From NCBI GenBank assembly GCA_051313645.2, contig JBNRSN020000009.1, forward strand, positions 44,888,001-44,952,000: a DNA stretch of 64,000 nucleotides, given 5' to 3'. The stretch comes from Centroscyllium fabricii. Taxonomy: Eukaryota. A program made the translations under genes and the position numbers. The notes under the pieces are model-generated. The model was not told the DNA's origin. It saw only the letters and a list, made by a program, of their open reading frames with translations, and did no database searches. Positions 25,201 through 62,500 of the stretch are shown here, in pieces. The first letter of the stretch is position 1. Each line of letters opens with the position of its first letter.

Positions 25201-27251
25201 GGACTTCAGGTCTATGGTGGAAAACACCCTGAATTGTGCGATCTGGTTCACCTCTTCGGCTATCCGGGGAAGGGGGTATGCGTCTAACTGGGTGAACCGG
25301 TTTATGGTCTGGCTGTAGTCAACGACCATCCGGTTCTTCGCTCCGGTTTTGACCACCACTACCTGCGCCCTCCAGGGGCTATTACTGGCCTCGATAACCC
25401 CCTCCTTCAGGAGGCGCTGCACCTCGGACTTAATAAAGTCCATGTCCCCAGCACTGTAGCGCCTACTCTTGGTGGCGACGGGCTTGCAGTCTGGGGTGAG
25501 GTTGGCAAAGAGCGAGGGAGGGGCGACCTTAAGGGTCGAGAGGCCACAGGTAGCGCGCCGGGGGTGCTGTGCTGAGCGCCGGTTGCTGACCGTGAGCGAG
25601 GGAAGGGGCCCACCGTACGCCATGGTAACACTCTGGAGGTGGCACTGAAAGTCCAGACCCAATAGTAATGGGGCGCAGAGCTGCGGCAGCACGAAAAAGC
25701 TAAAATTATCAAAGTGCACACCCTGTACAGCTAGGGCCACTGCGCAACGCCCGGAGACGTCCGCAGATTCCAATTTAGAAGCCATCGAAATTCTTTGGCT
25801 CGCAGGCATAACCTTAAGGGAGAAGCGCTCTGCTGTCTCAGGATGAATAAAACTCACCGTGCTCCCACTGTCGAAAAGGCACACCACGTCTTGTCCGTTC
25901 ACTTGCACCGGCATCATTGATTTCCCAAGCGATTGGGTCTTGTTCTGGTCAAGAGTTACTGATGCTAAAATTGGGTCAGCCGATTCCTCTTGATCCACAG
26001 AGTAGTCCTCCGGGGCCGGTCCCCAAGATGGCTGCCGCCATGTGGTGTACTGCGGAGGGGGTGGCTGGGTCCAATATGGCGACTGCTGCCACGCGGGGTG
26101 CTGAGTGGGGGATGGTTGAGTCCAATATGGCTGCTCCCATGTTCCGCACGCGGCGCTGCCCGGTTTCGGTTTAGGGGCTGGTGTGGTCGCCTTACAGACT
26201 TTCGCGTAATGTCCTTTTTTACCACATTTTGAACAGGCCGCTTCTCTTGCCGGGCAGCTACGTCTCGGATGCTGAGACTGCCCGCAGAAGTAACATTTAG
26301 CCATCTTTGCGTGAGCGGCTGCTATCATTTCTTCCGCCGGCCGTTGCGCCGGCGTTGTCCAAGATGGCGGGGCTGGGCCCACATAGTTGCCGGAATAAGA
26401 TGAGAGGTTTAGCGAGGCCACATCCAGCGCGTGTCCCAGATCCGTAGTTGCCTGCAGGTCAAGGCCGTTCTGCTCTAACAGCCTCTGTCTTATATAGTAC
26501 GACCTGAGGCCTGTCACATATGCGTCTCTAATGAGACTGTCCGCATGGATCAGGGCCGTTAGCGCTTTGCAGTCACAGGCCCGTGAAAGCACTCTCAGCG
26601 CTCTTAAAAATTCCACGCTGGACTCACCGGGTTGCTGCTTCCTGGTGGCTAGGAGATGTCTGGCGTGGACGATATTGGGTGCCCGGTTGTACTCCGCCTT
26701 GAGGATCCTGATAGCATCCAAGTACGATGATGCGTCCACGATCATGGAGTACACCTGAGGGCCCACCCGGGCGTTGAGGAGCCGTCGTTTGTCCTCTTCG
26801 GTCACGACGACCGCTGCGTTCGCTCTCAGGTACGCATCGAAAACACTGTACCAGTGTGTAAAAGTGTTTGATGCACCTGGTGTTTGGGGGTCCAGTTCAA
26901 ACGTCGCTGGCTTGAGCATGGCTTCCATCTTCAAAATTTAGTTAATAAAATTGTGACCGAAATAACGACCTCGTGGACGAGTAGTTAGAAAGAGAAACAA
27001 TGCGGCTTTTATTAACTAAATGGTGGGACACGCACCAGCTAGTCGACTGTCCCCAGGTATGGCCGGGGGATGGGAGACGGCCATTTATATACCCCCTCCT
27101 GGGAGGGAGGAGTCGCGGGCGGAGCCAGCCTGGGCATGTCCCGGTAATCGTATAACAGGTTATGTACAACATGGCATTAGGTACGATTACATAGATACAA
27201 ACGGGGTGATTATATACAATAAGAAACAGTGGGAAACAGTGGTTTATCACA
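22209..27251 (-). mobile_element. Ty3/Gypsy element A plus a truncated tandem second copy
   Basis: LTRs 26952-27251 and 22591-22880; PPT aaggggtgaa; 22209-22590 repeats the leader and gag start. Confidence 0.95.
22948..26928 (-). CDS. Gag-Pol polyprotein of element A, intact single ORF
   Basis: Two CCHC knuckles, LFDSGS, FPYLDNV, ESDASD, integrase DFKGP/HSDRG/GQVER. Confidence 0.93.
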   Translation of the reverse strand: MEAMLKPATFELDPQTPGASNTFTHWYSVFDAYLRANAAVVVTEEDKRRLLNARVGPQVYSMIVDASSYLDAIRILKAEYNRAPNIVHARHLLATRKQQPGESSVEFLRALRVLSRACDCKALTALIHADSLIRDAYVTGLRSYYIRQRLLEQNGLDLQATTDLGHALDVASLNLSSYSGNYVGPAPPSWTTPAQRPAEEMIAAAHAKMAKCYFCGQSQHPRRSCPAREAACSKCGKKGHYAKVCKATTPAPKPKPGSAACGTWEQPYWTQPSPTQHPAWQQSPYWTQPPPPQYTTWRQPSWGPAPEDYSVDQEESADPILASVTLDQNKTQSLGKSMMPVQVNGQDVVCLFDSGSTVSFIHPETAERFSLKVMPASQRISMASKLESADVSGRCAVALAVQGVHFDNFSFFVLPQLCAPLLLGLDFQCHLQSVTMAYGGPLPSLTVSNRRSAQHPRRATCGLSTLKVAPPSLFANLTPDCKPVATKSRRYSAGDMDFIKSEVQRLLKEGVIEASNSPWRAQVVVVKTGAKNRMVVDYSQTINRFTQLDAYPLPRIAEEVNQIAQFRVFSTIDLKSAYHQLPIRPEDRLYTAFEADGRLYHFLRVPFGVTNGVSVFQREMDRMVDRYGLRATFPYLDNVTICGHDQQDHDANLQKFLHTAKTLNLTYNTEKCVFSTTRLAILGSVVENGVIGPDPDRMRPLMELPLPHSPKALKRCLGFFAYYAQWVPNYADKARPLLKSTSFPLSAEARTAFCGIKNDIAKATMHAVDKSVPFQVESDASDFALAATLNQAGRPVAFFSRTLQGPETRHSSVEKEAQAIVEAVRHWKHYLAGKRFTLLTDQRSVAFMFNNKKRGTIKNDKILRWRIELSAFNYDILYRPGKFNEPPDALSHGTCASAQTDRLQTLHNDLCHPGVTRLVHFVKSRNLPYSIEEVKTLTSNCQVCAECKPHFYQPDRAHLIKATRPFERLSVDFKGPLPSSNKNVYFLNLIDEYSRFPFAIPCPDMTSATVIKALHSIFSLFSYPSYIHSDRGASFMSDELRQFLLAKGIATSRTTSYNPRGNGQVERENATLWKATLLALRSKSLPVSRWQDVLPEALHSIRSLLCTATNATPHERLFAFPRKSASGTSLPSWLLSPGPVLLRKHVRGHKADPLVERVHLLHANPQYAYVAFPDGREDTVSIKDLAPAGIPKPSPAQQPAHPRWPATPSGPSQPATPPQPPAPRYAPRHEDPVPQYVHPAPASSTAWPPAWLHSARPLESDDEGESAPPTVGIRAPPPRNQPTITARQPASAPSLQPTRPATPRPRTPPAVRRSTRITRPPERLNL

Positions 27252-27432
27252 AGGCAGACTGCTGTGTTCCTTGCAAAGACTTCTATTTGTTGCACAAACC
27301 TTGACAGAAGAATCTTTTTATTGCTGCAATGATTCGGTTTATTTTGTCTGGGCATTTTTGCAGCTAACTTTGTGATATGAGTTGGTACCAAAGTAGTATC
27401 CCTAGACATCTTCATCCCAATAGCCACCGCTG

Positions 27433-28258
27433 GGGAGGATTTTCCTGGAGGTGCGGCGATTGGTCGGGGCGGGTTCCTGTCCTGCCCGGCCAAGGGCCTG
27501 GGAAGCCGACACTATTTTCCTTTAATTGCTCAATTAAATCCCCGTGTGCGGGCTGCCCCTGGTAATTGCCTCAGTCGAGTCGGCAATTACGGAGCTCAAA
27601 CGGGATTCTAGGAGGTTGTTAGACAGCTGCGGGGACTGTGTGTTTACAGTTTCCATGGAAACACTCCACTGTGACATCACAGTGGAGTGCAACCAATGGG
27701 AAAGGCCAAATAATGTGAGTGACAGCTGGGCGGGCGGGCTACAAATCTTTGACAGCTAGAGGCCGGCTGTCAATGGAGCTGGCAAGGTAAGATTTCTAAG
27801 TTTTCCCCCCACAGCTGGTCTTCACCCAAGGTAGTGACTGACACCTCCAGGGTATTGAAGGCCTCGGAAGCATTTTGCTCTAGGTCCTTCAACACCTTGA
27901 AGGAGAAAGTTAGCAACACCACTGTGCTCCTGCTGGGTTTTACCAGCGGGGTTTTAGGATGGCGGGGTTTGGGTGGGAAGGGGTTGAAAATTGCTAAGGG
28001 CCCTTAAAATGACATTACAGATGCCAATTAAGGGCCCTTAATGAGCTTAACAACCATCCCTGCCGGCGGGAAAGATTCGGGGCAGGGAGACAGGGTGGTG
28101 GAAAATGGAAAATCGGCGGGGATCCGGCGGGGGGGGGGGGGGGGGGGGGGTGGGGGGGGGGGAGGTGTCAGGAGGGGTGTCAGGACCCACCGGTTCCGCT
28201 ATTTAGCCGTCCGACCTGCCCAAAACCCCGTCTCACGGGCACATGAAAATTTTGGCCC
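27433..28258. mobile_element. Harbinger-like MITE inside EEF1A exon 8
   Basis: ggg..attttc / gaaaatt..ccc ends; TSD CTG; removing it rejoins the exon. Confidence 0.75.
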
Positions 28259-28321
28259 CTGTCTCTATTATGTACTCCAAAGTGGCCTGTATGAGCACAA
28301 AGAAGTCTCGTTCCAAGGCTT

Positions 28322-28725
28322 ACATAGAAACATACATAGAAGATAGGAGCAGGAATAGGCCATTCGGCCCTTCGAGCCTGCTCCGCCATTCAATGAGATC
28401 ATGGCTGATCATCCAAACCCAGCACCCTGTCCCTGCCTTGTCCCCATATCCCTCAATCCCTATCGAGCCTGCACCGACACATATCCCACCCTATCCCCGT
28501 AACCCCACATATTCATTCCCCCTAACACTAAGGGTCAATTTATCCTGGCCAATCAACCTAACCCGCACATCTTTGGACTGTGGGAGGAAACCGGAGCACC
28601 CGGAGGAAACCCACGCAGACACGGGGAGAATGTGCAAACTCCACACAGATAGTACCCGAGGCCGGATTTGAACCCGGGTCTCTAGTGCTGTGAGACAACA
28701 GTGCTAACCACTGTGCCACCGTGCC
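28322..28725 (-). mobile_element. Composite HE1/V-SINE with CR1 tail
   Basis: tRNA head, V-domain, CR1 3' end. Confidence 0.9.
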
Positions 28726-28839
28726 ACTTTAACAAATGACAATCGTATTTTAAAATTAACCTCATTAGATGGAACATTGCACATTTCTAAAAGCAACTTG
28801 GAACCTAGCAATCTGATTTGCATATAGGCCAAGTCTTTA

Positions 28840-29340
28840 AGAACATAAGAAATAGGAGCAGGAATAGGCCACTTGGCCCCTCGAGCCTGCTCCGCCATTC
28901 AATAAGATCATGGCTGATCTTGGGCTCAAAGCCACTTCCCAGCCCTCTCCCCCTAACCCTTCACTCCCTTACCTTGCAAAAATTTGTCCATCTCCACCTT
29001 AAATGTATTTAATGACCCAGCCTCCACAGCTCTCTGGAGCAGAGAATTCTGCAGATTTATGACCCTCTTAAGAGAAGAAATTCCTCCTCATCTTAGTTCT
29101 AAAAGGGCGACCCTTTATTCTGAGACTGTGCCCCCGAGTTCTAGATTTCCCCACGAGGGGAAACATCCTCTCTGCATCTAAGCTGTTGAGCCCCCTAAGA
29201 ATCTTAATATGTTTCGATAAGATCCCCTCTCATTCTTCTAAATTCCAATGAGTATAGGCCCAACCTACTCAACCTTTCCTCAAAAGTCAACCCCCTCATC
29301 TCTGGAATTAACCAAGTGAATCGTCTCTGAACAGCCTCTT
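28840..29340 (-). mobile_element. CR1 3' fragment
   Basis: EAVQRRFTWLIPEMRGL..RMRGDLIETY; aacataag tail. Confidence 0.85.
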
Positions 29341-29350
29341 TAGAGCCTTT

Positions 29351-29851
29351 GGGGTAAAAATTTGGTTGTGCCCCCTTTGGGGCGCTAACTTCGCCGGGGC
29401 TACTGTAAGTGCTCCCCCTCCCTTTTGGGGCGCTCCCATTGAATATCACGACGCCACGTACAGCAGCGCCACACACGGTACTGCAGGCCTCCCTCCCCAA
29501 TTGAAGGGGAGGGGCCTAGCGCAGCGCGCACCAGGGCCCTGCTGGGCCACTAGGGAGCTGGGTGCCGGCAAAAGAACCCGGCGGGCTGATGGATCGCAGC
29601 CGGCACCCTGCAGCAGGAGGCCAGAGGGAGCAGGTGCTGGCACCTGCCCTTTAATTATCCCCCCCTCCCCCCTGCCGAATCTGTCGGACATAGCCAGAGG
29701 TGCAGCGCCACGGGACGCTACTGGCTGCCGCTAACCTCCTGCTGAATGTTGCGGGAGGCATTAGCGGTGCCATACCCAGGTGCTAGTTGCTTTGCACCCC
29801 GTTAGCACCACCTCGACAGTGGAGGCGCAAAGCAACCAAACTTTTTCCCCC
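29351..29851. mobile_element. Harbinger-like MITE
   Basis: TIRs ggggtaaaaatttggttg / caaccaaactttttcccc; core shared with 3760-4443. Confidence 0.72.
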
Positions 29852-30031
29852 ATTCGGCTTTTCTCCACGGGATTCTTCCAATGGATAATGTAATTACAGC
29901 TGTAAAAATGTAACCTGATCAGAGCCTCTATGTAACTATAAATCAAGGAACAGCATTTTACTGTTTAACCATGGTACAAGGAAGTTGACTGAATTGTCTT
30001 GCATCAAGCTATTCAGCTATCAGCTGCATAT

Positions 30032-30503
30032 GCATAGTGGTTAGCACTGCTGTCTCACAGCTCTGGCGACCCGGGTTCAAATCCGGCCTCGGGTGACTAT
30101 CTGTGTGGAGTTTGCACATTCTCCCCGTGTCTGCGTGGGTTTCCTCCGGGTGCTCCGGTTTCCTCCCACAGTCCAAAGATGTGCGGATTAGGTTGATTGG
30201 CCATGATAAATTGACCCTTGGTGTTAGGGGGATTAACTATGTGGGGTTACGGGGATAGGGTGGGATATGCAGGTTCGATAGGGATCGAGGGGCATGGGGA
30301 CAAGGCAGGGACAGAGTACTGGGTTTGGATGATCAGCCATGATCTCATTAAATGGCGGAGCAGGCTCAAAGGGCCGAATGGCCTACTCCTGCTCCTATCT
30401 TCTATGTTTCTATGTTACGAAGATAGGGTGGGGTATGTGTCGGTGCAGGCTCGATGGGCCGAAATGGCCTCTATCTGCACTGTAGGGATTCTATGATTCT
30501 ATA
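30032..30503 (+). mobile_element. Composite SINE carrying both tail types
   Basis: CR1-derived tail followed by the gattctat tail. Confidence 0.85.
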
Positions 30504-31197
30504 TGAATTAGATATATCTGATGCAGATGAACATGTTTGATTTGTTCACACTGTCTTCCCTACTACGTACTACATTTAAGCATCTTTTCCTCCTCACCCA
30601 TGGAGGCTACCTATTTTGGGGATCATGAGTAGCCTTTTCAGTCCTCGATGGTGATAAGATGTTATCTGACCCGAGAAGGATTCAGTACTTGGTATTCAGC
30701 ACCGTTTGGTTTGAATGCCTCCTGATCAGAACCCAGTTTGGTAAGGAAGGCATTTGGGATAAGAACTGAAATATATGACACTGGAGTTGCAAATGACCAA
30801 ATACCATTCCAAACATTGTTTCTCCTATGCAGTGCTACCTGGAATTAAATAAATACTTCAGCTCAAAGGTCTACATGGGGCATAAGCAGCCATGGGAATA
30901 TAGTCATCCCAATTAGCCATCATCTGTATGACATTTCCAAGGCTGGAGAAAGATTGCCAGCAACTGAGCCATACTGCTACTTATAATGTTATAGGAACAA
31001 CACCATCTCCTCCTTGGAACCTTCAGGAGGCTCATTAACAAGATGGTACAGTGTCTACATTTAAGCACCACAGGAGGAAGACAGCCTATGTAAAACACTC
31101 CAGTGGCACTGCCTTTGGTCAGTGTTATTGAACTTCCAGGCAGGCCTAGGAAGCCTCAAATTATTCATTCATACCAATTAACCAGTTTACCTCAGAA

Positions 31198-32200
31198 CTC
31201 TTTTATTTAAAACCAATTACAAAAACACCATTACTTAAAACATTCACAAAAGAAAATAAAACCCCCACATTACCGCGCTTGAGCAGCGGCAAACTACGAA
31301 GCCCCAATGCCCACAAGGTAGGGGTCAAAGTTTCAAACCCTCCTGCCTACGAGGCAGGGGTCAAAGTCTCAAGTCCTTATGCCCACAAGGCAGGGGTGAA
31401 AGTCACAAGCCTTCATGCCCACAAGGCAGGGGTCACGACCACAAGTCCTCATGGCCGCAGGCAGGGGCCCAAACTCGCCAACCTTCCTGGTCGTCGTCGC
31501 CCGCCCATCCGGACAGTGGGTCTCCGGGAAAACACACAGACGAGGGTCGGCGCTCCCAGTGGATGGCTGGTGCAGATCCGGCAGTCTCCGGTTGACATTC
31601 TACTCCATCCGCAGGGCCCTCCGCATCGCCGAGCGGATCCTCCCACTCTCCTGGACAAGCGGACTGAAAGGAAGCTCAAAAACACTTGATTAATATGATC
31701 TCATTAAACCAAGATCACCCCAGCCGGGGTAACGATGCACTCCAGTCCCCGCTGTGCCCACCGGTCCCGAAAGACTTTGAGCGTGCCGGCGGACGCCGTG
31801 TGCTCCATCTCCAGGGCCACCCGGGCGCGAACATAGCCGCGGAAGAGATGCAGGCAATCGGGCCGAACCACGCCCTCGACTGCCCTCTGCCTGGACCTGT
31901 TAATGGCCACCTTGGCCAAGCCCAGGAGCAGTCCCACGAGGAGGTCTCCGACCTGCCCTCTCCCCTCCGCACCGGGTGGCCGTAGATCAGGAGCGTGGGG
32001 CTGAAGTGCAGCCAAAAGTTGAGGAGCAGCCCCTTCAAATAATGAAACAGGGGGTGCAACCTTTCACACTCACTGTAGATGTGGAACACGGACTCCTCCA
32101 GGCCGCAAAAACAGCACTCAGCCTGGGAACCCGTGATCCTGCTTAATAACTTATTGCACGGGACTGCTCCGTGCAACACCCTCCATGCCAAGTCCCCAAT
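31198..32200 (-). mobile_element. L1/Tx1-clade LINE 3' part
   Basis: GDLAWRVLHGAVPCN..CCFCGLEESVFHIYSEC zinc finger, LLGLAKVAI; 3' UTR with gcccacaaggcagggg repeats and aataaa. Confidence 0.8.
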
Positions 32201-32351
32201 AAATAAGCCCCCACCATCTCCACTAATCCAATAATAACTAACAAACGCCCTCATTGGGCTACCCTGCTTGAAACTAGATTATGATTCCAACAAAGCTCAA
32301 AGGGATAGATATTGCTGAAGTGCTCTCACCAAAAGGAGGGTAAGAGAAGAT

Positions 32352-32512
32352 GGGCGGAAGTCATTGTGTTTGGCATAAAGGATCACCTGGGCAGAGCATG
32401 CAGAAGGGTATTAGATGGGGAGCATCACAGGCCCAGAATCTGCTTGATTTTCCTCTATCCACTGTGCCGAGGCAATCTTTTACACCAAACACAACCATAG
32501 GAAAATCTGCCC
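32352..32512. mobile_element. Small GGGC-ended MITE in EEF1A exon 7
   Basis: gggcggaagtc / ggaaaatctgccc; removal restores MC..FSYPPFG|gt. Confidence 0.55.
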
Positions 32513-33744
32513 AGAGGTCTCCACACATGAGCTTCCTGGGGATCATGACAATGGTGCGAGTGTCAACAGATTTCAGATTGTCCTTCAGTTTTTTGAATTA
32601 GCAGATCAACAGTCAGGAAAGGGTTTTCTGCTTCTACACTTACCAGCCTACAATTTTCCACCCGTTATAGCGAACGGAGGAATAGTACAGAAGCTGAAAC
32701 TCCCAGCCTCAGTCTTCTGCTTCAGTTCAGAAAGCATGCAGGCAATGTGGTCAACATCGGATTTTAGCATCGGGCTGGAGACAACTGTCTAGGATGGTTC
32801 AGTATGATCACTTGAGAAGCAAATGCATGGTCAACCAGCAAAGTACTTAATAATGGGATTGAAGCACAGGTTCAATCCCCAGCTCCTTGGGTCAAAGTCT
32901 AGTGTACAAAAACTAGTTATTGATGTTTATCCAACAGACTTTGTATTCTTAATCCAAAAAGCCATGTAAAAACCAGGTCACCAGGAATGCATTCCAACTT
33001 GTGACTCAACCGATCCAATTACATATGAAACTCACTTCACTTAACCACATATAATCAGTGAGCACACTGAGACAGCTGACCAGAATAGCAATGCATTACC
33101 ATGGAGTACTGTTGTAAATTGAAGGTTCACAACTGTGTTCGCCAGTTTGACTTAATAATCTTGGCTATGTTGCTGAGGCAGGAGGTAAAGCACGTAGAAG
33201 AAATAAGTCATTCAATAGAGACTAAGAACTTCTGACAGCGAGGGAACGTAAGTCAGCTCCAGGTCACTTATGTGCCTCCTGGTAGCTGACAGAGCAGCTA
33301 TGGCAGAAGAATGTTGAGCTGGCAACTTGTACATTCAGTTGGGTGGACAATTACCACAACTCCACTTGGCCACCTGAACTGTGAAGCTTCCAAAGGATGA
33401 GCATTCTTGCTGACTTGAATCACATTGCCACAAATGTTGAATGTCCTTCCATCAACCCATTCTTGACATTGTACCCACATTGTCTCTGCCACAGTTTCTG
33501 CCAGAGCTGAATAGTGCACCCAACCACTTTCACTTCAGTTGAAAGGTCACCACCATGACAGCCTTCAGGGGCATTTTCACTCAGGCTATTGGTTAATCTC
33601 TGACTGGAAATGAGGTGGTAAATTAGAATTTCAATAATTGAATTAGAAGCAATTAAATATTCAGGAGAAGAGGTCAGATCTTAGCTGAACCCACTTGCAA
33701 TCTTGTAGACATCCTTTAGGGGAAGGCGGTGGGTTTTGTCTAGG

Positions 33745-34347
33745 NNNNNNNNNNNNNNNNNNNNNNNNNNNNNNNNNNNNNNNNNNNNNNNNNNNNNNNN
33801 NNNNNNNNNNNNNNNNNNNNNNNNNNNNNNNNNNNNNNNNNNNNNNNNNNNNNNNNNNNNNNNNNNNNNNNNNNNNNNNNNNNNNNNNNNNNNNNNNNNN
33901 NNNNNNNNNNNNNNNNNNNNNNNNNNNNNNNNNNAGGGGGTGAGAGGGAGAGGGGGGGAGAGGGAGAGGGGGGGGAGAGGGAGAGGGGGGGGAGAGGGAG
34001 GGGGGGAGAGGGAGAGGGGGGGGAGAGGGAGAGGGGGGGAGAGGGAGAGGGGGGGGAGAGGGAGAGGGGGGGAGAGGGGGGGAGGAGGAGGGAGAGAGAG
34101 GAGGAGGAGGGAGGGGGAGGGGAGGAGGGAGGGGGAGGGTGGGGGAGGAGGGAGNNNNNNNNNNNNNNNNNNNNNNNNNNNNNNNNNNNNNNNNNNNNNN
34201 NNNNNNNNNNNNNNNNNNNNNNNNNNNNNNNNNNNNNNNNNNNNNNNNNNNNNNNNNNNNNNNNNNNNNNNNNNNNNNNNNNNNNNNNNNNNNNNNNNNN
34301 NNNNNNNNNNNNNNNNNNNNNNNNNNNNNNNNNNNNNNNNNNNNNNN
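33745..34347. repeat. Polypurine (GGGAGA-type) repeat 33935-34154 between two assembly gaps
   Basis: N runs at 33745-33934 and 34155-34347. Confidence 0.95.
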
Positions 34348-42770: not shown

Positions 42771-43019
42771 ACTGGAATTTTTAATTATTTTTGTATTTGT
42801 ACATTCACTTTTAATGATTTGTGTACGCAGACCCCTAAATTCTATTGCTCCTCCTCCACAGCTCCTAATCTCTTCCCATTAACAAAATATTGCAATGTCA
42901 CTTTCTCAGATTAAGAGTGGATGGCCTGTATATTAATTATTGGATTGCTGAATACTGCTCTATTTACATTGTAAGAAGTCACACAACACCAGGTTATAGT
43001 CCAACAGTTTTATTTGAAA

Positions 43020-43056
43020 TCACAAGCTTTCGGAGCGCTGCTCCTTCATCAGGTGA
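43020..43056 (-). ncRNA. Minimal type I hammerhead ribozyme motif
   Basis: tcac CTGATGA aggagc agc gctcc GAAA gctt gtga. Confidence 0.7.
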
Positions 43057-43582
43057 AGTGGAGAGCTGCATATAGGCACAGCATATATGGTCAGAGAACA
43101 ATGCTAGATGATTACAGGTAATTCCTCTAACCGCTCTTTATCACACCTCGGCAGAGAGACAATCACAGCAATCAAAGGTGTGAATGGTGTCCAAACAGGT
43201 CAGCCAGGAGAAAAATTCCATCAAAGAACAATGAGGTGGGGTCACAAGGGGCCAAACGCTGCACATGCTGGGGTCTGTATGAAAAACAAAAAACAAACAA
43301 AAAACAATAAAAAATGAAATTGATGTTTTTTTAATTTCATTTTTTATTGCTTTTTGTTTGTACAGACCCCAGCATGTGCAGCATTTGCCCCCCTGTGACC
43401 CCACCTCATTGTTCTTTGATGGAATGTTTTCCTGGCTGACCTGTTTGGACACCATTCACACCTTTGATTGCTGTGATTGTCTCTCTGCTGAGGTGTGATA
43501 AAGAGCGGTTAGAGGAATTACCTGTAATCATCTAGCATTGTTCTCTGACCATATATGCTGTGCCTATATGCATCTCTCCACT

Positions 43583-43619
43583 TCACCTGACGAAGGAGCA
43601 GCGCTCCGAAAGCTTGTGA
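43583..43619 (+). ncRNA. Minimal type I hammerhead ribozyme motif
   Basis: tcac CTGACGA aggagc agc gctcc GAAA gctt gtga. Confidence 0.72.
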
Positions 43620-44131
43620 TTTCTAATAAAACTGTTGGACAATAACCTGGTGTTGTGTGACTTCTTACATTTGTCTACCCCAGTCCAACACTGGCACCGC
43701 CACATCCTGGCTATTTACATTGACTCAGGTTTACATGCTTATCATAAACACAAATGACAGCCTCTTTAATTGTGACCATGGGGCATTATCCTTCCGTGTC
43801 TTCCTCATGCTCTCCATGGCATTTGACATGGTCTACCTTGCCAACCTCCTCTATTGCCTTTTCTCTTTTATCCAGCTCTGTGGGACTAATGTTCTTTTGG
43901 TTCCAGTCCTACCTGTCCTAATACAACCAGCACATTTCCAGCAATAGTTTCTCATTGGACCCCACACAGTCACTGGCAGCATTCCCTACAGATCTATCCT
44001 TGGTCCCTTCCTCTTCTACAGAATTCCTTTGGTGACATGATTTACAGTCACAGAATCAGCTTCCATATCTATACTGACGACACCTGGCTCTACCTCTTCA
44101 CCACTGCCTTGACCACTTCTGTATTGTACTC

Positions 44132-46371: not shown

Positions 46372-46372
46372 T

Positions 46373-51625: not shown

Positions 51626-54600
51626 CACTGCTGAGACATCTGTGCCTATTTGTAAAACTTCCAGTTTAAACATTTAGTTTTATCTATTGATGGGATGTGG
51701 GTGTCACTGGCTGGCTAGGCCTGCATTTAGTACCCATCCCTAATTGCCCTTGAGAAGATGGTGGTGAGCCACCTTCTTGAACCGCTGCCGTCCATATGGT
51801 GTAGGTACACCCACAATGTTGTTAGGAAGGGAGTTCCAGGATTTTGGCCCAGCGACAGTGAAGGAGCGGCGATACAGGTCCAAGTCAGGATGGTGTGTGG
51901 CTTGGAGGGGAACTTCTGGTGGTGCTGTTCCCATGCGTCTGCTGCCCTTGTCCTTCTAAGTGGTAGAGGTCGCGGGTTTGGAAGGTGCTGTTGAAGGAGC
52001 TTTGGCGAGTTGCTGCAGTGCATCTTGTAGATGGTACACACTGCAGCCACAGTGCGCCGGTGGTGGAGGGAGTGAATGTTGAAGGTGGTGGATGGAGTGC
52101 CAATCAAGCGGCCTGCTTTATCCTGAATGGTGTTGAGCTTCTTGAGTGTTGTTGGAGCTGCACTCATCCAGGCAAGTGGAGAGTATTCCATCACACTCCT
52201 GACTTGTGCCTTGTAGATGGTGGAAAGGCTTTGGGGAGTCAGGAGGTGAGACACTCGCCGCAGAATTCCCAGCCTCTGGCCTGCTCTTGTGGCCACAGTA
52301 TTTATATGGCTGGTCCAGTTCAGTTTCCGATCAATGGTAACCCCCAGGATGTTGATAGTGGGGGATTTGATGCACGATCAATTATACTCAAAGACTGGTT
52401 GAGGTTCAACTTAGGCTTTTATTAGCAGTGATCAGAGCCAGGCTCCTTCCACAGTCGAGTCCAGGGGGAAAATGGAGAAAGCCCAGCAGCCGCTGGCTTT
52501 ATACTCTGAATGTGGGTGGAGCCAGCACTGACCGAGTCCTCCGAGAACCAAGGTTTACACACAGTGGTGGCGAATAGTATTGCAGGTAAATATGTACAAA
52601 CAGTGAACAAACAGTGAACAACAAGGCAAACTATTTACACAGTGGATACGTGGTGGTAAACCGTATTGTGGTTTACCATTCACCCCTCCTTAGGATGTGT
52701 TTCCGGCGGGGTCAAAGATTAAGTCTGTCGGGGGGTCTGATGGTCCTGTGCGAGCGGCATAGTTCCGGTTGCGGCGCGGGATCTCCAGGCGGGGTGGTCT
52801 GCGTCGTCGGTGGCGTGGCCGGAGTCATCGGAGAGTTGTGCATCAGCTGGTCCCGGCTCGCAAGCGTACCGTCTACAGGGGCTAGAGAAAAGGAGGGTAA
52901 CAGCGGTTCATCGAGAGATACGGTGGGAGGGTTGGAGATAAGGTGTTGGGGGTGGAAGATTGGTGGTGGGGAGATGGGAAAAGGTGGAGGGGGTTGGTGG
53001 TGGAGAGGTCACCCGGGGGTGCCAGATCCCTGATAGAGACTGTGTCCTCCCGCCCATCGGGGAACGCCACATAGGCATACTGGGGGTTGGCGTGGAGGAG
53101 CTGAACCCTCTCGACCAGGGGATCCGTCTTATGGCCCCTCACGTGCTTCCGGAGTAGGACTGGTCCTGGGGACGTCAGCCACGATGGTAGCGAGGTCCCC
53201 GAGGTGGATTTCCTAGGAAAGGCAAACATGCGCTCGTGAGGGGTGGCGTTAGTCGCAGTGCAGAGCAGCGACCTAATGGAGTAGAGCGCGTCAGGGAGGA
53301 CCGCCTGCCAGCGGGAGACCAGGAGATCCCTAGACCGCAGGGCCAGGAGGGTAGCCTTCCAGACTGTCCCATTCTCCCATTCCACCTGGCCATTCCCTCG
53401 GGGGTTATAGCTGGTCGTCCTGCTCGTAGCCACTCCTTTCGCGAGCAGGTACTGGCGCAGCTTATCACTCATAAATGAAGAGCCCCGATCACTGTGAATG
53501 TAGCTGGGGAGGCCAAAAATGGCAAAGATGCTGTGCAGGACCTTGATGACCGTGGCAGCGGTCATGTCTGGGCAGGGGATGGCGAAGGGGAAACGTGAGT
53601 ATTCGTCAATGACTGTCAGAATATACACTTTCCGGTCCGAGGAGGGGAGGGGCCCTTTGAAGTCGACGCTGAGGCGCTCAAAGTGGCGGGTGGCCTTAAC
53701 TAGTGTAGCTCTGTCCGGCCTGTAGAAGTGCGGTTTACACTCCGCGCAGATGGAGCAACTCTGGGTGACTGCCCGGACCTCAGCGACCGAGTAGGGCAGA
53801 TTGCGGGCTTTTACAAAATGGAAGAAGCGGGTGACTCCCGGGTGATAGAGCTTATTGTGGAGGGATTTCAATCTATCCCCTTGTGCGCTGGCACAGGTCC
53901 CGCGGGATAGCGCGTCTGGGGGCTTGTTGAGTTTACCGGGCCGGTATAAGATATCATAATTGTAGGTGGACAGCTCAATTCTCCACCTCAGGATCTTGTC
54001 ATTTTTGATCTTGCCCCGCTGTTTATTGTTAAACATGAAGGCCACTGAACGCTGGTCAGTGAGCAAGGTGAATCTCTTACTGGCCAGGTAATGTCTCCAG
54101 TGCCGCACCGCCTCCACAATGGCCTGGGCTTCTTTCTCCACCGAGGAGTGCCTGATCTCCGGGCCTTGGAGGGTGCGGGAGAAGAAGGCCACATGTCGCC
54201 CTGCCTGATTGAGGGGGGCGGCAAAAGCGAAGTCGGAGGCATCGCTTTCTACCTGGAACGGGGTAGATTCGTCCACGGCGTGCATGGTCGCTTTAGCGAT
54301 GTCTGATTTGATGCTCTCGAAAGCCACTCGGGCTTCTGCCGCTCGGGGGAAAGAGGTGGATTTAATGAGGGGGCGTGCCTTGTCCGCATAGCGAGGGACC
54401 CACTGGGCGTAATAGGAGAAAAAGCCCAGGCACCTTTTCAGGGCCTTGAGGCTGTGGGGGAGGGGAAGCTCCATGAGGGGGCGCATGCATTCGGGGTCTG
54501 GACTTAAGACCCCATTTTCCATGACACAGCCCAGAATGGCAAGGCGGGTGGTGTGGAAAACGCATTTCTCCTTATTGTATGTGAGATTAAGGAGCTGAGT

Positions 54601-54690
54601 TGTTTGGAGAAATTTCGCCAGGTTAGCGTCGTGGTCCTGCATGTCGTGGCCGCAGATGGTCACATTATCTAGATAAGGGAAGGTAGCCCG

Positions 54691-57600
54691 TGACGTATCG
54701 TCAATATCTCCGATTAAAAGAGTCGATGAGTAGTTACCGTAACTAAAGGCTTTTAATCGCTAAGTTTGGAGCTACCCTCCGGAACGAACTTCTGTACAGG
54801 AATGAGGAGCCTCGGTCAGTTTCCACCTATAAAGGGCCTCACCTGGGGGAGGAGTTAGAGGTGTGGCTGGCCTGGCTCCCGACAGTATTACACAGGTTAC
54901 AGGGCTGTGCCCAACAGTATTACACAGGTTACAGGGCTGTGCCTTACATCCGCACAGCCCATTATTGGCACAATAATACAGTGGTAACAATTACATAATA
55001 TGGTTACCACATTCACCCCTTCTTGAAAATTTTAAGTCCGGGGGGTGGGTGAATGGGCCGAACAATTAACGATCAGTCTGTCCGGCGGTCGTGTCTGCCT
55101 GGAGGACCGCCGGCGTTCCGGTGGTGGTGGTGTTGCCTCCTGGTCCGTACCACTCGCGTCTGCCGGTGGTGACCGCTGATCAGGTGCCGTGGCTTCTGGT
55201 GGCGATGGATCCAGCTGGTCCACGCCGTCCGGGTGGTGGTTTTGTACTGGCCACTGCTGGGGCTCTGGGAAGCTCGGGGGCCATCGTGTGCCTGGTGGGT
55301 TCTCTGGATACAGTGGCTGAGCGGCCTGCTGGCCGACCAGGGGCTCTGCGGTGGTGCTTCCTGCGGGAGCCAGGTCCCTGATGGACACGGTGTCCTCGCG
55401 CCCGTCCGGGAACTGCACGAATGCGTAATGTGGGTTTGCGTGTAGGAGCTGCACCTTGTCCACCAGGGGGTCGGTCTTGTGGCTCCTGACATGTCTCCTA
55501 AGGAAGACCGGCCCCGGCGTCGTCAGCCATGGAGGGAGAGCTGTCCCCGAAGTCGATTTCCTGGGGAAGGAGAAAATCAGATCGTGCGGGGTGGAGTTAG
55601 TAGCTGTACATAAGAGAGAGCGTATAGAGTGCAGCGCGTCTGGGAGGACTGCCTGCCAATGGGACACTGGAAGGCCTCTGGACTTCAGAGCCAGGGTGAC
55701 CGCCTTCCAGATGATCCCATTCTCCCTTTCTACCTGGCCGTTCCCCCGGGGGTTGTAACTGGTCGTTCTGCTCGTGGCAACCCCTTTCTGGAGCAGAAAC
55801 TGACGCAGTTCATCGCTCATGAACGATGACCCCCGGTCGCTATGGATGTAGATGGGGAGACCGAAGATGGCGAACAGCGTGGTGAAGTGTTTTATCACCG
55901 TTGCGCTCGTCATATCTGCGCAGGGGAAGGCGAAGGGGAAGCGGGAGAACTCATCTACTACCGTGAGGAAGTATGAGTTGCGGTCGGTGGAAGGGAGGGG
56001 GCCTTTGAAGTCCACGCTGAGACGTTCAAAGGGGCGGGTGGCCTTAATGAGGTGCGCCGTGTCTGGCCGGAAAAAGTGGGGTTTGCACTCGGCAGAGACA
56101 AGGCACTCTCGGGTCATAGCCTTGATCTCCGTGATGGAGTAGGGGAGGCTACGGGATCTGACAAAGTGGGCGAGTCTGGTGACACCCGGGTGGCAAAGGC
56201 GGTCGTGGAGGTCCTTCAGCCGGTCGAGCTGGGCACTGGCGCACGTTCCCCTGGACAGTGCGTCCGGGGGTTCATTGAGTTTGCCTGGTCGGTAAAGAAT
56301 GTCGTACTCGTAAGTCGAGAGTTCGATCCGCCACCGCAGGATCTTATCATTCTTGATTTTACCCCGTTGTTTATTATTAAAAATAAACGCCACCGACCGT
56401 TGGTTGGTGAGCAGGGTAAAACGATTACCGGCCAGGTAATGAGGCCAGTAGCGCACGGCCTCCACGATGGCCTGGGCCTCCTTTTCCACTGCTGAGTGGC
56501 GAGTTTCGGGTCCCTGTAAGGTGCGGGAGAAAAACACTATGGGCCTGCCTGCCTGATTCAGGGTGGCAGCAAGGGCAAAGTCCGAAGCGTCACTCTCCAC
56601 CTGGAAAGGGATGGATTCATCAACAGCGAGCATGGTCGCCTTGATGATGTCTTCCTTTATCCTTGCGAATGCCGTTTGGGCTTCTACAGAAAGGGGGAAG
56701 ACGGCAGCTTTGAGGAGTGGTCTAGCCTTATCTGCGAACTGTGGGACCCATTGTGCATAATAGGAGAAAAATCCTAGGCATCTCCTCAAGGCTTTGGGAT
56801 TGTGAGGTAGGGGCAGTTCTTGCAGGGGTCGCATACGCTGTGGGTCGGGGCTGAGGACCCCGTTCTCCACCACGTATCCGAGGATGGCGAGCCGATCTGT
56901 ATTAAAGACACATTTGTCTTTGTTATACGTGAGGTCCAGCTTAGCCGCCGTGTCGAGAAATCTGGCCAGATTGGCATCGTGGTCCTGCTGGTCGTGGCCG
57001 CAGATGGTCACGTTGTCCAGGTAGGGGAAGGTGGCCTGCAACTCATTTTGGTCAACCATACGGTCCATCTCCCGCTGGAACACTGACACTCCATTGGTCA
57101 TGCCAAAGGGGACCCGGAGGAAGTGGTAGAGCCGACCGTTCGCCTCGAAGGCGGTGTAGGGGCGGTCGGCTTTCCGGATCGGGAGCTGATGATACGCCGA
57201 TTTAAGGTCGATCGTAGAGAACACCTTGTACTGGGCGATCTGATTGACCATGTCTGAGATGCGGGGAAGGGGGTAGGCGTCGAGCCCGGTGTAGCGGTTG
57301 ATAGTCTGGCTGTAATCGATCACCAGCCGTTGTTTCTCGCCAGACTTCACCACTACAACTTGGGCACGCCAGGGGCTGGTGCTGGCTTCAATTATCCCCT
57401 CCTTCAGCATCCGCCCGACCTCCGACCTGATAAACGTGCGATCCCCCGCACTGTACCGCCGACTCTTAGTGGCAATGGGTTTGCACTTGGGATCGAGGTT
57501 GGCGAACAGCGAGGGGGGGTCGATTTTCAGGGTAGAGAGGCCGCAGGCCGGGCTCCGCTTTGGGAAGAGATTGTCCCGGCTACTGACGGTGAGGGGGAGC

Positions 57601-59555
57601 AAGGTCCCGCCGAACTCCATTGTCACGCTCTTGAGGTGGCACTGGAAATCCAAACCTAATAAGGCTGGGGCACACAACTGCTGGAGGGTATACAATTTAA
57701 AATTATGGTACACGCACCCCTTGACTGTGAGCGTGATGGAGCAGTAGCCGGTGATGTCCGCGGTGTGGGACTGTGAAGCTAGGGAGACTTGGTAGTTAGT
57801 GGGCAGGACCTGCAGTCCGCAGCGCTGCACTGTATCGGGGTGTACAAAGCTCTCAGTGCTTCCAGTGTCAAACAGGCAGTTAACAGTATAGCCGTTAATC
57901 TTAATGGGCATAATAGAGTTGGACAGGGTATGTGGCCTGTCCTGGTTCACTCTGAGTCTGGCTGCTGCAGCCGTGCGTTTTCGTGTGTGTGGGCCCCCTG
58001 CTGGTCGGGGCTGTACACAAGATGGCGGCGCCCCTGGCTCGCACATGGTGGGGCCCTGGATACAAAATGGCGGCGCCCCTGGCTCACACATGGTGGGGCC
58101 CTGGATACAAAATGGCGGCACCGAGGGGTCGCACATGGTGGGCCGCTGTGAGCGTGCTGGCGGCGCCCGTGATTCGCACGCAGCGGACCACGGTGACTGG
58201 GTTGGCGGTGCCCGTGATTCGCACGCAGCGAGCCGCGGTGGTCGGGTTGGCGGTGCCCGTGGTTCGCACGCAGCCGGCCGCGTTGGGGGGTCGCGCTTGG
58301 CCGGCCTTTGCTGCATCGGGGTGGGAGATGGGGGCACTTGTTTTCTACCCCCGGACCGTCGCTGGATCGCGCTGCTATTGCAGCTTACCTGGTGTCTGTC
58401 GGTGCTCTCACAGGCTGCACTGTTGTACCTTGAGCTGGGCGCTGCTGGAGCTGATCTGCAGGCTTTAGCATAGTGTCCTTTCTTGGCGCACCTCTCACAC
58501 GTCGCTGTCCTGGCTGGGCATCTCGCTCTTGGGTGCAGTCCCTGGTTACAGAAGTAGCAGCGCTTATCTTTAGTGGCTGTCGCAGCCATCGTGGGGGTCT
58601 CGACCCGTTGTGGTGCTGCCCAGGCCTGGGTTCGTTGTGGCGCGGCCCATATGTCGTAGGCGTGCGGGTTAGTGCCGCTGTATGCCTCTAATTTGTTTCG
58701 GGCCCCCTCTACTGAGTTGGATATCTTAATCGCATCCTCGAGGGACAGAGTGTCTTTCTCCAGCAGCCGCTGGCGGGCTTCCACACATCTAAGTCCAGTA
58801 ACATAAGCGTCACGAACGAGGAGGTTCGCCTCCTCTTCAGCCGTTATTGCTTGGCAGCCACAGACCCGTACCAGGGCCTGGAGTGCTTGCTCGAACTGCT
58901 CGTTAGTCTCACCCGGTAGCTGAGATCTGGTTGCAAGCACATGTCTGGCGTAGACCGAATGTACCGGGCGCTCGTAGCACTTCCTTAGCTTCTCCACGGC
59001 CACTGGGTAGGTTGCGGCGTTTCTGATGAGGGAGAATACCCTGCTGGAGATCCTCGACCGGAGGACCTGCAATTTGTTCCTGTCTGTTGTAGCCTTGGCG
59101 GCGTCCATGTAGGCCTCCAGGAGGCCGAACCAGTGTTCGAACGTGGTAGCAGCGGCAGGGTCCTGGGGACTGATGTCCAGCTTCTCTGGTTTAACTGCGC
59201 TGCTCTCCATTTTAAAATACTTAGCGATTAAAATTGACGTATCGTCAATATCTCCGATTAAAAGAGTCGACGAGTAGTTACCGTAACTAAAGGCTTATAA
59301 TCGCTATGTTTGGAGCTACCCTCCGGAACGAACTTCTGTACAGGAATGAGGAGCCTCGGTCAGTTTCCACCTATAAAGGGCCTCACCTGGGGGAGGAGTT
59401 AGAGGTGTGGCTGACCTGGCTCCCGACAGTATTACACAGGTTACAGCGCTGTGCCCAACAGTATTACACAGGTTACAGGGCTGTGCCTTACATCCGCACA
59501 GCCCATTATTGGCACAATAATACAGTGGTAACAATTACATAATATGGTTACCACA
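54691..59555 (-). mobile_element. Gypsy element C, full length, inserted in the RT of element B
   Basis: LTRs 54691-55011 and 59235-59555; TSD GCCCG. Confidence 0.96.
55032..59210 (-). CDS. Gag-Pol polyprotein of element C, 1392 aa, intact
   Basis: CCHC knuckles, LFDTGS, FPYLDNV, integrase DDE. Confidence 0.93.
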   Translation of the reverse strand: MESSAVKPEKLDISPQDPAAATTFEHWFGLLEAYMDAAKATTDRNKLQVLRSRISSRVFSLIRNAATYPVAVEKLRKCYERPVHSVYARHVLATRSQLPGETNEQFEQALQALVRVCGCQAITAEEEANLLVRDAYVTGLRCVEARQRLLEKDTLSLEDAIKISNSVEGARNKLEAYSGTNPHAYDIWAAPQRTQAWAAPQRVETPTMAATATKDKRCYFCNQGLHPRARCPARTATCERCAKKGHYAKACRSAPAAPSSRYNSAACESTDRHQVSCNSSAIQRRSGGRKQVPPSPTPMQQRPAKRDPPTRPAACEPRAPPTRPPRLAACESRAPPTQSPWSAACESRAPPARSQRPTMCDPSVPPFCIQGPTMCEPGAPPFCIQGPTMCEPGAPPSCVQPRPAGGPHTRKRTAAAARLRVNQDRPHTLSNSIMPIKINGYTVNCLFDTGSTESFVHPDTVQRCGLQVLPTNYQVSLASQSHTADITGYCSITLTVKGCVYHNFKLYTLQQLCAPALLGLDFQCHLKSVTMEFGGTLLPLTVSSRDNLFPKRSPACGLSTLKIDPPSLFANLDPKCKPIATKSRRYSAGDRTFIRSEVGRMLKEGIIEASTSPWRAQVVVVKSGEKQRLVIDYSQTINRYTGLDAYPLPRISDMVNQIAQYKVFSTIDLKSAYHQLPIRKADRPYTAFEANGRLYHFLRVPFGMTNGVSVFQREMDRMVDQNELQATFPYLDNVTICGHDQQDHDANLARFLDTAAKLDLTYNKDKCVFNTDRLAILGYVVENGVLSPDPQRMRPLQELPLPHNPKALRRCLGFFSYYAQWVPQFADKARPLLKAAVFPLSVEAQTAFARIKEDIIKATMLAVDESIPFQVESDASDFALAATLNQAGRPIVFFSRTLQGPETRHSAVEKEAQAIVEAVRYWPHYLAGNRFTLLTNQRSVAFIFNNKQRGKIKNDKILRWRIELSTYEYDILYRPGKLNEPPDALSRGTCASAQLDRLKDLHDRLCHPGVTRLAHFVRSRSLPYSITEIKAMTRECLVSAECKPHFFRPDTAHLIKATRPFERLSVDFKGPLPSTDRNSYFLTVVDEFSRFPFAFPCADMTSATVIKHFTTLFAIFGLPIYIHSDRGSSFMSDELRQFLLQKGVATSRTTSYNPRGNGQVERENGIIWKAVTLALKSRGLPVSHWQAVLPDALHSIRSLLCTATNSTPHDLIFSFPRKSTSGTALPPWLTTPGPVFLRRHVRSHKTDPLVDKVQLLHANPHYAFVQFPDGREDTVSIRDLAPAGSTTAEPLVGQQAAQPLYPENPPGTRWPPSFPEPQQWPVQNHHPDGVDQLDPSPPEATAPDQRSPPADASGTDQEATPPPPERRRSSRQTRPPDRLIVNCSAHSPTPRT

Positions 59556-62500
59556 GCCCGCAGCTCATGCTGGTCCACCATGCGGTCCATCTCCCGCTGG
59601 AAGACGGATACACCGTTGGTAACGCCAAAAGGGACCCGGAGGAAGTGATAGAGACAGTCGTTCGCCTCGAAGGCGGTGTACTGGCGGTCTTCGGGGCGGA
59701 TGAGGAGCTGGTGGTACGCGGACTTCAGGTCGATCGTTGAGAACACCCGTTATTGCGCAATCTGATTTACCATGTCAGAAATGCGTGGTAGGGGGTACGC
59801 GTCCAGCTGGGTATACCTATTTATGGTCTGACTGTAGTCGATTACCATGCGATTTTTCGCTCCGGTTTTAACGACTACCACTTGGGCTCTCCAGGGGCTG
59901 GTGCTAGCCTCGATGGCCCCCTCCTTCAGGAGCCACTGAACCTCGGCTTTGATAAAAAGCCTATCCCCCAAACTGTAGCGTCTGCTCTTTGTGGCTATTG
60001 GCTTGCAGTCCGGGGTGAGGTTAGCGAACAGTGGGGGAGGGGTGACCTTAAGGGTCGACAGGCCACAGACCGTGCGTGGCTGCGTTTTGGAAACCTGCCG
60101 GCTGCATACTGTGAGGGGGGGAGGGGCCCACCCTACTTCATCGTGACGCTGTCGAGGTGACTCTGGAAATCTAGCCCGAGCAGAACGGCAGCGCAGAGGT
60201 CAGGGAGGACAAAAAGCTTAAAGTTATTATAGACTGTGCCCCGCACAGACAAAGTGACAAAATAACAGCCGCCAACATCTGCAGTCTGAGTCCGAGAGGC
60301 CAGGGAAATCAGTTGGCGTGCCGGGCGGACCGGGATGGAAAGCCTCTTTACTGTGTCCGGGTGGATAAAACTTTCCGTGCTGCCGGAGTCAAAAAGACAG
60401 TTTGTATCGCGACCGTTTACCTTGATGTCCATAGTTGATCTGGCAAGCTGATGGGGCCTGGATTGGTCCAGGGTGATGGAGGCCAGGTGAGGCAGCAGCA
60501 GGTCCGATTCTCTAGCTGCAATCGGTGAGGTCTGTAGCAAAGATGGCGGCGCCCACGGGTCGCACGCGGCCGGGGAGGATTCAAAATGGCCGCCCGATTC
60601 AAGATGGCTGCTCGCACGTTCCCCACGCAGCTGGAGAAGATGGTGGCTGGAAGATGGCGGTGCCCACGAATCGCACGTGGCCGTCCAAGATGGCCGCTCG
60701 GCCGGGACACACGCGGCACTGCTGGGGTTGGGGGAGGATCTGGACTTGCAGACACTAGCGTAGTGCCCCTTTTTCTTACAGCCGGAGCACGTTGCTTCTC
60801 TCACCGGGCAGCGCTGTCTGGGGTGCTTGGTCTGGCCACAGAAGTAGCATTTCTGGGCGCGCGTTGCCGCTGCCGACATTAGCGGGGGCGGGGGGCAGTG
60901 GGGGTTGAAGTTCCTACCGTCCATGCTGGCTGCGCCCGCGCTGTCTGCGAGGTGGTTGGCTGGTCATAGGCCTCTGCATTCCAGTGTGCCACATCTAGTG
61001 ACTGTACCAGGGCTGCTGCAGCGTCACAGTCCAAGTCTTTATTTTCAAGCAGCCGCTGGCGAGTGTGGTTCGACTGTACACCGGTTACGATCGCATCGCG
61101 GATGAGCTCGTCGAGGTGGTCTTCCGCCGAGACGGCCTGGCGGCAGTCCAGCCCAAGTTCCCGCAGCGCCCGGATAAAATCGATAGCTGACTCGCCGGGT
61201 TGTTGGCTGCGGCTCAGAAGAAGGTGTCTCACGTAGACTGGGTTAACAGGGGCTGCAAACTGCTTTTTGAGGACCCGCATGGCTTCGATGTAGGTCGTTA
61301 CATGTCTGATCATCCCATAAATCGACGGGCTGACTCGGGACAACAGGACCGCCAGCTTGTTCGCGTCTAAAGCGACGGTGTCACCAGAGGCAGCCAGGAA
61401 CAGTTCAAAGCATTTGAGCCAGTGTTCAAACCTTCACGGGCTGCTGGCTGATTGGAGGTCTAGCTCCAGGAGCCGTGGCATCAGGATTTTGTCCATTGCC
61501 AAAAATCACTGCTAATAAAATTAATGCACGATCAATTATACTCAAAGACTGGTTGAGGTTCAACTTAGGCTTTTATTAGCAGTGATCAGAGCCAGGCTCC
61601 TTCCACAGTCAAGTCCAGGGGGAAAATGGAGAAAGCCCAGCAGCCGCTGGCTTTATACTCTGAATGTGGGTGGAGCCAGCACTGACCGAGTCCTCCGAGA
61701 ACCAAGGTTTACACACAGTGGTGGCGAACAGTATTGCAGGTAAATATGTACAAACAGTGAACAGACAGTGAACAACAAGGCAAACTATTTACACAATGGA
61801 TACGTGGTGGTAAACCATATTGTAGTTTACCACAGGATTCAGCGATGATAATGCCATTGGCTGTCTCCCTTCCTAGCAACGGTTCTCCAGGGGCTTCTAC
61901 TACAATGAACTCCGCCTGCTGAGTGCTCTTACCTATTGTAATCCCACATGTGTCACGCTATTTCCAGTCACAGTAAATACATAGTCATTTTGTTTTACTA
62001 CATTGTTCACACTGTGTTTCTTTGCATCCTTTGTGTGGCACATTTTGGAGAAGTGATCCTTTCCCTTGCACTTATGACACATTTGTCCGCGTGCTGGGCA
62101 TTTCGGATCTCTGCCCATGTGGTCTGTGTGTCCATATCTGTAGCTTTTCCTTTCGTTCTTATTGCCGTTTCCCTTTGGTTTCTCTGACGAGCTTTTCACA
62201 TGATACCCTCTTTTCCCTGTAACATGATGAACAGTATCTGTCTCCGCCTTCTCTGTACATGACATGGCTGACATCTGCTCCTCGACGTTTTCACATATTG
62301 AGGCCAGTTGCAATGTGTGGGCGAGCATTAAATCTTGCCCTTCCTCTAGCAATTTCCTCTGCACATAGGCTGACGTACACCAACTCAGGATAGCGTCTCT
62401 CATTTGATTATCCGCATCCCCCCCAAAAGCACAGTCCTTTGCAGCCTGCCGCAAGCGAGTGGCAAATTATTGCACAGTCTCACCTGTCTTCTGAGACAAC

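Follow-up and report, generated by a model that had tools for sequence, protein, structure and literature searches.

A probable long and differently built form of Tf1-type self-priming in a clade of single-frame Gypsy retrotransposons from Centroscyllium fabricii

The window (a stretch of 64,000 nucleotides from the Centroscyllium fabricii assembly GCA_051313645.2, contig JBNRSN020000009.1, positions 44,888,001 to 44,952,000) was found to contain three Gypsy elements on the minus strand, referred to here as A, B and C, each with one gag-pol frame that is open in A and C. All three are Ty3/Gypsy LTR retrotransposons, with TG...CA LTRs of about 300 bp, target-site duplications (5 bp for B and C), a polypurine tract (PPT) and the domain order protease, reverse transcriptase (RT), RNase H and integrase. 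In element A, the 5′ LTR (26952..27251) with a TATA box at 27084..27091 is followed by a single gag-pol ORF (22948..26928), encoding two zinc knuckles, protease, RT, RNase H and integrase and giving no chromodomain match, and then by a polypurine tract at about 22881-22894 and the 3′ LTR at 22591-22880 (together 22591..22894; all minus strand). Element C (5′ LTR 59235..59555, single gag-pol ORF recognized from its frame and domains at 55032..59210, 3′ LTR 54691..55011) is nested inside element B, which is broken and split by the insertion of C, with a 5′ LTR at 61522..61834 and a 3′ LTR at 52368..52678 (all minus strand). In A and C, YLDN stands in place of YxDD as the catalytic motif of RT, and both YLDN and YLDD were present among their relatives. 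A chromovirus of the Tf1/sushi type on the plus strand (D, 10155..15778), with Pfam Chromo and SH3_Tf2-1 domains, was used as the control. In D, the 11-nt LTR partner (10283-10293) for its primer-binding site (PBS, 10705-10715) starts about 29 nt after a TATA motif, which is the Tf1 layout.

Behind the 3′ LTR of element A, a second leader, PBS and gag start were located at 22209..22590 on the minus strand, forming a truncated tandem unit within a 663-bp repeat (99.4 %). Element A is a tandem over 22209-22880, with one LTR common to it and the truncated second unit; this arrangement recalls the integrase-independent insertions of Tf1, and arrays were also present among the genome matches. Elsewhere in the window are a 443-aa frame with a DDE_Tnp_4 (Harbinger-type) domain (18055-19386), a 700-bp self-inverted, palindromic segment with 92 % identity (42970-43669) and a tandem array of 27-28-nt units (17244-17685).

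In each of A, B and C the LTR end CA (TA in the 5′ copy of B) is followed by one A and then by the complement of a stretch of the LTR itself, and this partner stretch ends in AWTAAA(A), followed by GCC. For element A, the PBS at 26936..26950, behind a one-base spacer at 26951, is complementary at 15/15 positions to the partner at 27007..27021, which ends in AATAAAA. For element B, the PBS at 61505..61520 is complementary to 61571-61586 at 16/16 positions. The PBS of element C at 59219..59233 matches the partner in the 3′ LTR (54751-54765) at 15/15 positions, and the partner in the 5′ LTR (59295-59309) carries two substitutions. These complements, all on the minus strand, had been described in an earlier note on this DNA and were confirmed. 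Sequence contigs from four runs contained T>G at 26943 together with A>C at 27014, a compensating pair in element A. No poly(A) loose ends were found in the contigs from these runs, and the viral contigs searched gave no match.

Related elements were drawn from 800 kb of unselected genome sequence, 80 metagenome loci and pattern matches (7,053 against 150 for the control). The genome is 7.2 Gb in size and the clade is very abundant, with tens of thousands of copies. Among 110 gag-start records the duplex was called in 69, and the remaining 41 comprised 31 records anchored inside gag, 1 nested record, 4 mutants selected by pattern, 3 lacking an intact LTR and 2 from another clade. The 37 duplex types that had not been chosen by pattern were grouped into 27 families, from this genome and the metagenome contigs. 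Pattern-selected loci were excluded from the statistics, element B was a manual addition, and one record (L287) duplicates another (L286).

Duplex positions -1 to -13 were paired in 25-27 of the 27 families, though most of these positions vary, and -14 was paired in 14/27. The conserved core across the 27 families is 13 bp; the complement of 15-16 nt given by the earlier note holds for the window elements but not for the clade as a whole. With shuffled partners, 12-14/27 families were paired at the variable positions, in a shuffle that keeps column make-up and not kinship, such that the p-values serve as a guide only. The self-complement is far beyond chance, and the covariation upholds the earlier claim that pairing is kept while the sequences differ. 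Watson-Crick pairs filled 469 of 481 cells and G-U pairs 2, a low G-U count being favoured by a search that scored Watson-Crick matches. Two records, L097 and L098, are near-identical apart from one compensated pair.

Several positions are fixed or nearly so, with G at -10 (26/27), A at -11 (24/27), A at -1 to -3, RCC directly after the duplex (27/27) and a one-base spacer A after the LTR CA (26/27). The loop between partner and PBS ranged from 23 to 67 nt among the 27 families. The hexamer AATAAA or ATTAAA lies within the duplex in 21/27 families; the earlier description of the segment as ending in this hexamer applies to these and fails for the other six, two of which have a canonical hexamer in the loop. 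Measured from the start of the TATA box, the duplex begins some 70 nt further on, which corrects the previous figure of about 60 nt. A splice-acceptor reading of the conserved AG was rejected, the AG being absent in several families.

A TGG directly after the LTR was found in 0/55 types, and the Mag-like neighbours (L057, L061) had TGG sites. On this evidence a tRNA-type PBS is absent from these elements, in agreement with the earlier note. The longest match between a PBS and a tRNA was 7 nt in a comparison with 11 genes, of tRNA-Cys and tRNA-Lys only. The family-specific covariation argues against half-tRNA priming, that is, by an internal tRNA fragment.

An RT tree of 39 rows, midpoint-rooted and thinly sampled with one chromovirus only and no named reference sequences, placed A, C and 30 relatives in a 32-row clade (100/100) excluding control D, with three Mag-like rows nearest. 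Matches to Chromo and SH3_Tf2-1 were found in D, and neither domain gave a match in A or C. With no chromodomain and an RT apart from that of D, A and C appear not to be Tf1/sushi chromoviruses, and an origin of self-priming independent of the chromoviruses is likely. Sharks and rays supplied the nearest named proteins, and relatives were present in nematodes, a sea anemone and a damselfly. A provisional name is taken from the Cigr-1 clade of Ty3/Gypsy in Ciona, molluscs and annelids, Cigr-1 having a 245-bp LTR and a 3.6-kb ORF. The likeness is drawn from description, both being small single-ORF animal Gypsy lineages, and the accessible text of PMC6238403 and PMC8556966 makes no mention of a Cigr-1 primer site.

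Because an initiator-like motif lies 30 nt after the TATA box and plus-strand DNA could overrun the PBS on a self-primer, fossil copies of such overruns were sought. The search pattern, consisting of the LTR end and PBS without the normal leader, was built to catch only longer read-through copies. Family A had 149 matches, group C had 713 and a third family had 7, against 0 in controls. Ordinary group-C junctions gave 71,441 matches (some double-counted), which corresponds to about 1 read-through per 100. Beyond the PBS, the faulty copies continue with LTR sequence in reverse-complement orientation. In the 84 copies examined (the first-listed 39/149 of family A and 45/713 of group C), the copied stretch ended at 15 nt in 1, at 16-51 nt in 20, at 52-56 nt in 22, at 57-58 nt in 4, at 59-165 nt in 5 and at the LTR start or beyond in 32. 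The concentration of 22/51 ends within 5 nt (52-56) has a p of 2e-19 against a uniform distribution, with the bin drawn after the data and the position predicted before.

Copy by copy, the ends at 52-56 nt coincide with the initiator A (-52 to -54), 30 nt past the TATA box (-82 to -85 in these copies and -81 to -87 across the shark families). The 26 copies ending at 52-58 nt represent 22 distinct junctions. Several of the start-site-ended copies show no further templated base and most then resume forward at scattered gag-pol places; in L301 the normal leader resumes after a 53-nt copy. Given these copies, the template was likely an RNA with its 5′ end at the initiator A, and the simplest reading for families A and C is that transcripts start about 53 nt upstream of where the duplex ends. 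No RNA run was found to contain the sequence, and the start site and the cut are read solely from fossils in genomic DNA, with start-site ends in two shark family groups (A and C). Such a start does not lie at the paired segment, in keeping with the earlier proposal of a geometry unlike that of Tf1/sushi. Plus-strand DNA that annealed to an intact second RNA is another possible source of the start-site class. For the window, the putative self-primer of element A is 54 nt long, from the initiator A at 27060, 31 nt after the TATA box, to the last paired base at 27007 (27007..27060), and same-family read-through copies end at this initiator. That of element C would be 53 nt (59295..59347), with the TATA box at 59370-59377 and the initiator A at 59347, where group-C copies end; for element B, with TATA at 61657, an initiator A is predicted at 61627 from the sequence (all minus strand).

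The largest single class, with ends at the LTR start or beyond (32/84), would fit fold-back of plus-strand strong-stop DNA carrying a PBS copy and is uninformative on primer length. Five of these copies, and L264 in addition, run through U3 and the PPT into pol. Start-site ends were 0/6 in the third large family, which had 5 LTR-start ends and 1 PPT end. Family B and B-like fossils gave 2 and 5 matches, with one read-through of 28 nt, and the chromovirus control gave only 3 matches, one a fold-back through the TATA box. Arm-versus-LTR divergence (1.05 % vs 2.5 %) did not separate the read-through classes. Proof of an RNA cut was not drawn from copies with a left LTR starting close to the cut site, because the opening of a DNA hairpin would give the same result.

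Folding predicted the 13-bp core in 26/27 leaders. A hairpin RCCY...RGGY of at least 4 bp, starting from the junction, was found in 18/27 (shuffles: mean 7.4, max 15), being weak in window elements A and B, and a stem to the LTR end of at least 5 bp in 15/27 (shuffles: mean 6.9). In element A, ViennaRNA also predicts a hairpin at 27025..27053 (minus strand) within the unpaired 5′ part of the putative primer. One poly(A)-tailed copy (1 match) was found, in which a tail of 17 A follows the junction by 15 nt and sits at the hairpin end; if this site is general, about 15 nt would be left for the first strand transfer. In L358 (1-1540), this element RNA with its 17-A tail lies beside LINE-like sequence, possibly as a retrocopy of an LTR-element transcript.

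From the observed duplex, its register, its covariation and the fossil ends, we infer the start, the pairing of the 5′ piece and the cut as follows, and consider it probable that these elements use Tf1-like self-priming, the primer being the initial ~53 nt of the element RNA, cut just after the hexamer and probably by the element RNase H. Transcription would start at the initiator A, at about -53, and the 3′ 13-16 nt of the 5′ RNA piece would pair with the PBS. The cut in the RNA would fall on the hexamer/RCC junction or no more than 1-2 nt from it, where the small hairpin has its base. An RNase H domain was found in the element, and its presumed role as the cutting enzyme follows the analogy with Tf1, for which RNase H cutting after base 11 is described in the available part of PMC7175516. 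Strong-stop DNA (24-68 nt) would then jump to the 3′ end via the ~15 nt between the cut and the poly(A) site. Plus-strand DNA would copy the primer, as a rule stopping once the useful part is copied, with overrun leaving the fossils. The 13-bp core would fit the RT if spacing resembles that of Ty3, whose RT active sites are given as ~13 bp apart in the accessible text of PMC5371799. By analogy, primer copying would rewrite the PBS, since for Tf1 the available portion of PMC11042837 reports that the primer is copied into cDNA ends and the copies are kept. For Ty1 and Ty3, the source text at hand has the PBS not inherited from the primer, and therefore covariation by copying is not assured.

Several alternatives share part of this evidence. 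A primer of the same 5′ origin might be cut a second time or trimmed to 13-16 nt in the normal cycle, leaving the 53-nt piece as an intermediate seen only in faulty copies. The sharp 13-bp boundary would suit such trimming, as would the rarity of read-through (only ~1 % of junctions), the 20/84 copies ending between 16 and 51 nt and the family without start-site-ended copies. However, no cluster of ends was found near 13-17 nt, though the patterns caught only longer copies, and the 52-56 cluster indicates that full-length 5′ pieces are copied; we regard trimming as unlikely. The primer could instead be the 3′ R copy of the genomic RNA, from the same or a partner molecule, trimmed back to the hexamer. 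This is suggested by the copies (5/84, plus L264) that run through U3 and the PPT into pol, and by arm-versus-LTR mismatches that pile up at the variable position -8 (6/25, p 1e-4), so that templates can differ. Against it, the density of ends is 0.56/nt just inside the start site, 4.4 at it and 0.08 beyond (7-fold and 50-fold), and the 5′ copy lies only 23-67 nt from the PBS and is predicted to be paired in nearly all leaders. Moreover, a 53-nt primer copy annealing to any 3′ R would yield the PPT class too, and the -8 cluster, which points to different templates for PBS and LTR, would be expected under the 5′-cut model if the LTR stretch is rebuilt from 3′ R. A 3′ R primer thus appears distinctly unlikely, and the transcript 3′ end, which the earlier note had put forward as a possible primer, does not stand as the main one, with 46/84 copies ending at 16-58 nt and only 5/84 running through U3 into the PPT.

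Two further readings seem more remote. Ordinary Tf1 geometry, with a start at the paired segment (e.g. the conserved A-11/G-10) and a primer of 10-13 nt, could draw on the resemblance of these two bases to an initiator and on the short-LTR non-shark families, in which no clear TATA box was apparent by eye. Positions -12 and -13, upstream of such a start, nevertheless covary, and the shark families have TATA at the distance given above with fossils stopping at -53 in families A and C, making this geometry highly improbable. Least probable of all, and scarcely credible, is that the duplex serves solely to hide the 5′ poly(A) signal while an unknown host RNA or tRNA fragment primes. The canonical hexamer is within the duplex in most families; according to folding, it would be inaccessible in 5′ leaders and, for A and B, exposed in the 3′ context. 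Masking alone, however, would not need the single-base register to the LTR end, and the fossils run on from the PBS into LTR sequence; in six families the duplex holds no canonical hexamer, a common host primer is incompatible with 55 different site sequences, and the tRNA genes compared, 11 of tRNA-Cys and tRNA-Lys only, matched over at most 7 nt. Taken together, the observation is real and clade-wide, and the system is most likely a long, differently built form of Tf1-type self-priming.

Under self-priming from the 5′ piece, a side effect may be that the 5′ hexamer is buried in the duplex and the 3′ copy left free. In the ViennaRNA predictions the hexamer of 5′ leaders is paired, and in the 3′ context it is mostly open for A and B, but not for C. 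Poly(A) masking is thus a possible second role and, because the hexamer is inside the duplex in 21/27 families and absent there in 6/27, not the defining one. Retroviral 5′ poly(A) occlusion is exemplified by the HIV-1 poly(A) hairpin, with the hexamer in a stem near the 5′ end. In the present elements, by contrast, the partner lies only behind the 5′ LTR and is itself the PBS. A second 8-9-nt complement of the hexamer stretch was observed in the U5 of element C (59252-59262) and in the group-C relatives L054 and L087. It covaries partly with the hexamer stretch, is predicted to pair with the hexamer in the 3′ LTR of element C, and may form an alternative fold.

Self-priming has been described, in the available portions of PMC6317226, PMC4600332 and PMC10085805, for Tf1/sushi, Tcn1 and the copia TAR lineage. 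Tf1/Tf2 of Schizosaccharomyces pombe, Tj1, Tosmo/Tcry and Tf1/sushi elements likewise have no tRNA PBS, and their PBS complements a stretch of their own LTR, according to the accessible text (PMC7175516, PMC4600332, PMC10085805, PMC11042837). The use of a 5′ transcript piece as primer and the extra short stems beside the duplex would be further likenesses to Tf1/sushi as these sources present it. The Tf1 primer consists of the first 11 bases and is wholly paired, whereas here it would be ~53 nt with ~38 unpaired 5′ bases, and unlike in Tf1 the poly(A) hexamer is part of the duplex, which stops at RCC. The three-duplex pretzel of Tf1 is only partly matched, by the hairpin at the cut in 18/27 families and the stem to the LTR end in 15/27. 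In plants, self-priming has been predicted from an LTR complement after the 5′ LTR for Tcn1 and the TAR lineage of Ty1/copia (Houba, Osr-1) (PMC6317226, in the part available); these are copia or chromovirus elements and place self-priming outside Tf1/sushi. No report was found of self-priming in a non-chromovirus animal Gypsy element, or of a primer over the poly(A) signal, in a literature search to which subscription papers, Repbase and the Cigr-1 paper were external, such that a prior mention is possible.

A broader reading is held tentatively, at somewhat under an even chance: that self-priming arose separately in an animal Gypsy lineage that has no kinship with chromoviruses, with a capped ~53-nt primer, one duplex both hiding the 5′ poly(A) site and setting the primer cut, primer copying driving PBS covariation, and a fossil record that gives start site, primer length and poly(A) site without RNA. 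Proof of self-priming exists for one yeast element, and the trait is assumed to be characteristic of the Tf1/sushi group. A separate lineage whose primer differs in length and whose cut site carries a fixed code (G-10, AAA, RCC hairpin) would give a second natural system in which to study how an RNase H recognizes and cuts an RNA-RNA duplex. It would also connect priming with the choice of poly(A) site, account for the failure of tRNA-based PBS finders to detect these elements, and provide a general means of mapping retroelement start sites from genome sequence.

Some of the collected copies had unusual structures. Two U3 ends, the LTR and an inverted U3 ending in CA, were present in L261-L266, L272, L280, L281, L300, L308 and L337, apparently integrated fold-back cDNA. 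Near-identical read-through junctions were shared among L296, L306 and L339 and between L299 and L310, possibly amplified non-autonomous derivatives with an extended PBS. L277 carries an in-place inversion of the loop that separates its LTR partner from the PBS, and the PBS of the chromovirus copy L355 has a second partial match in U5, onto which it folds back.
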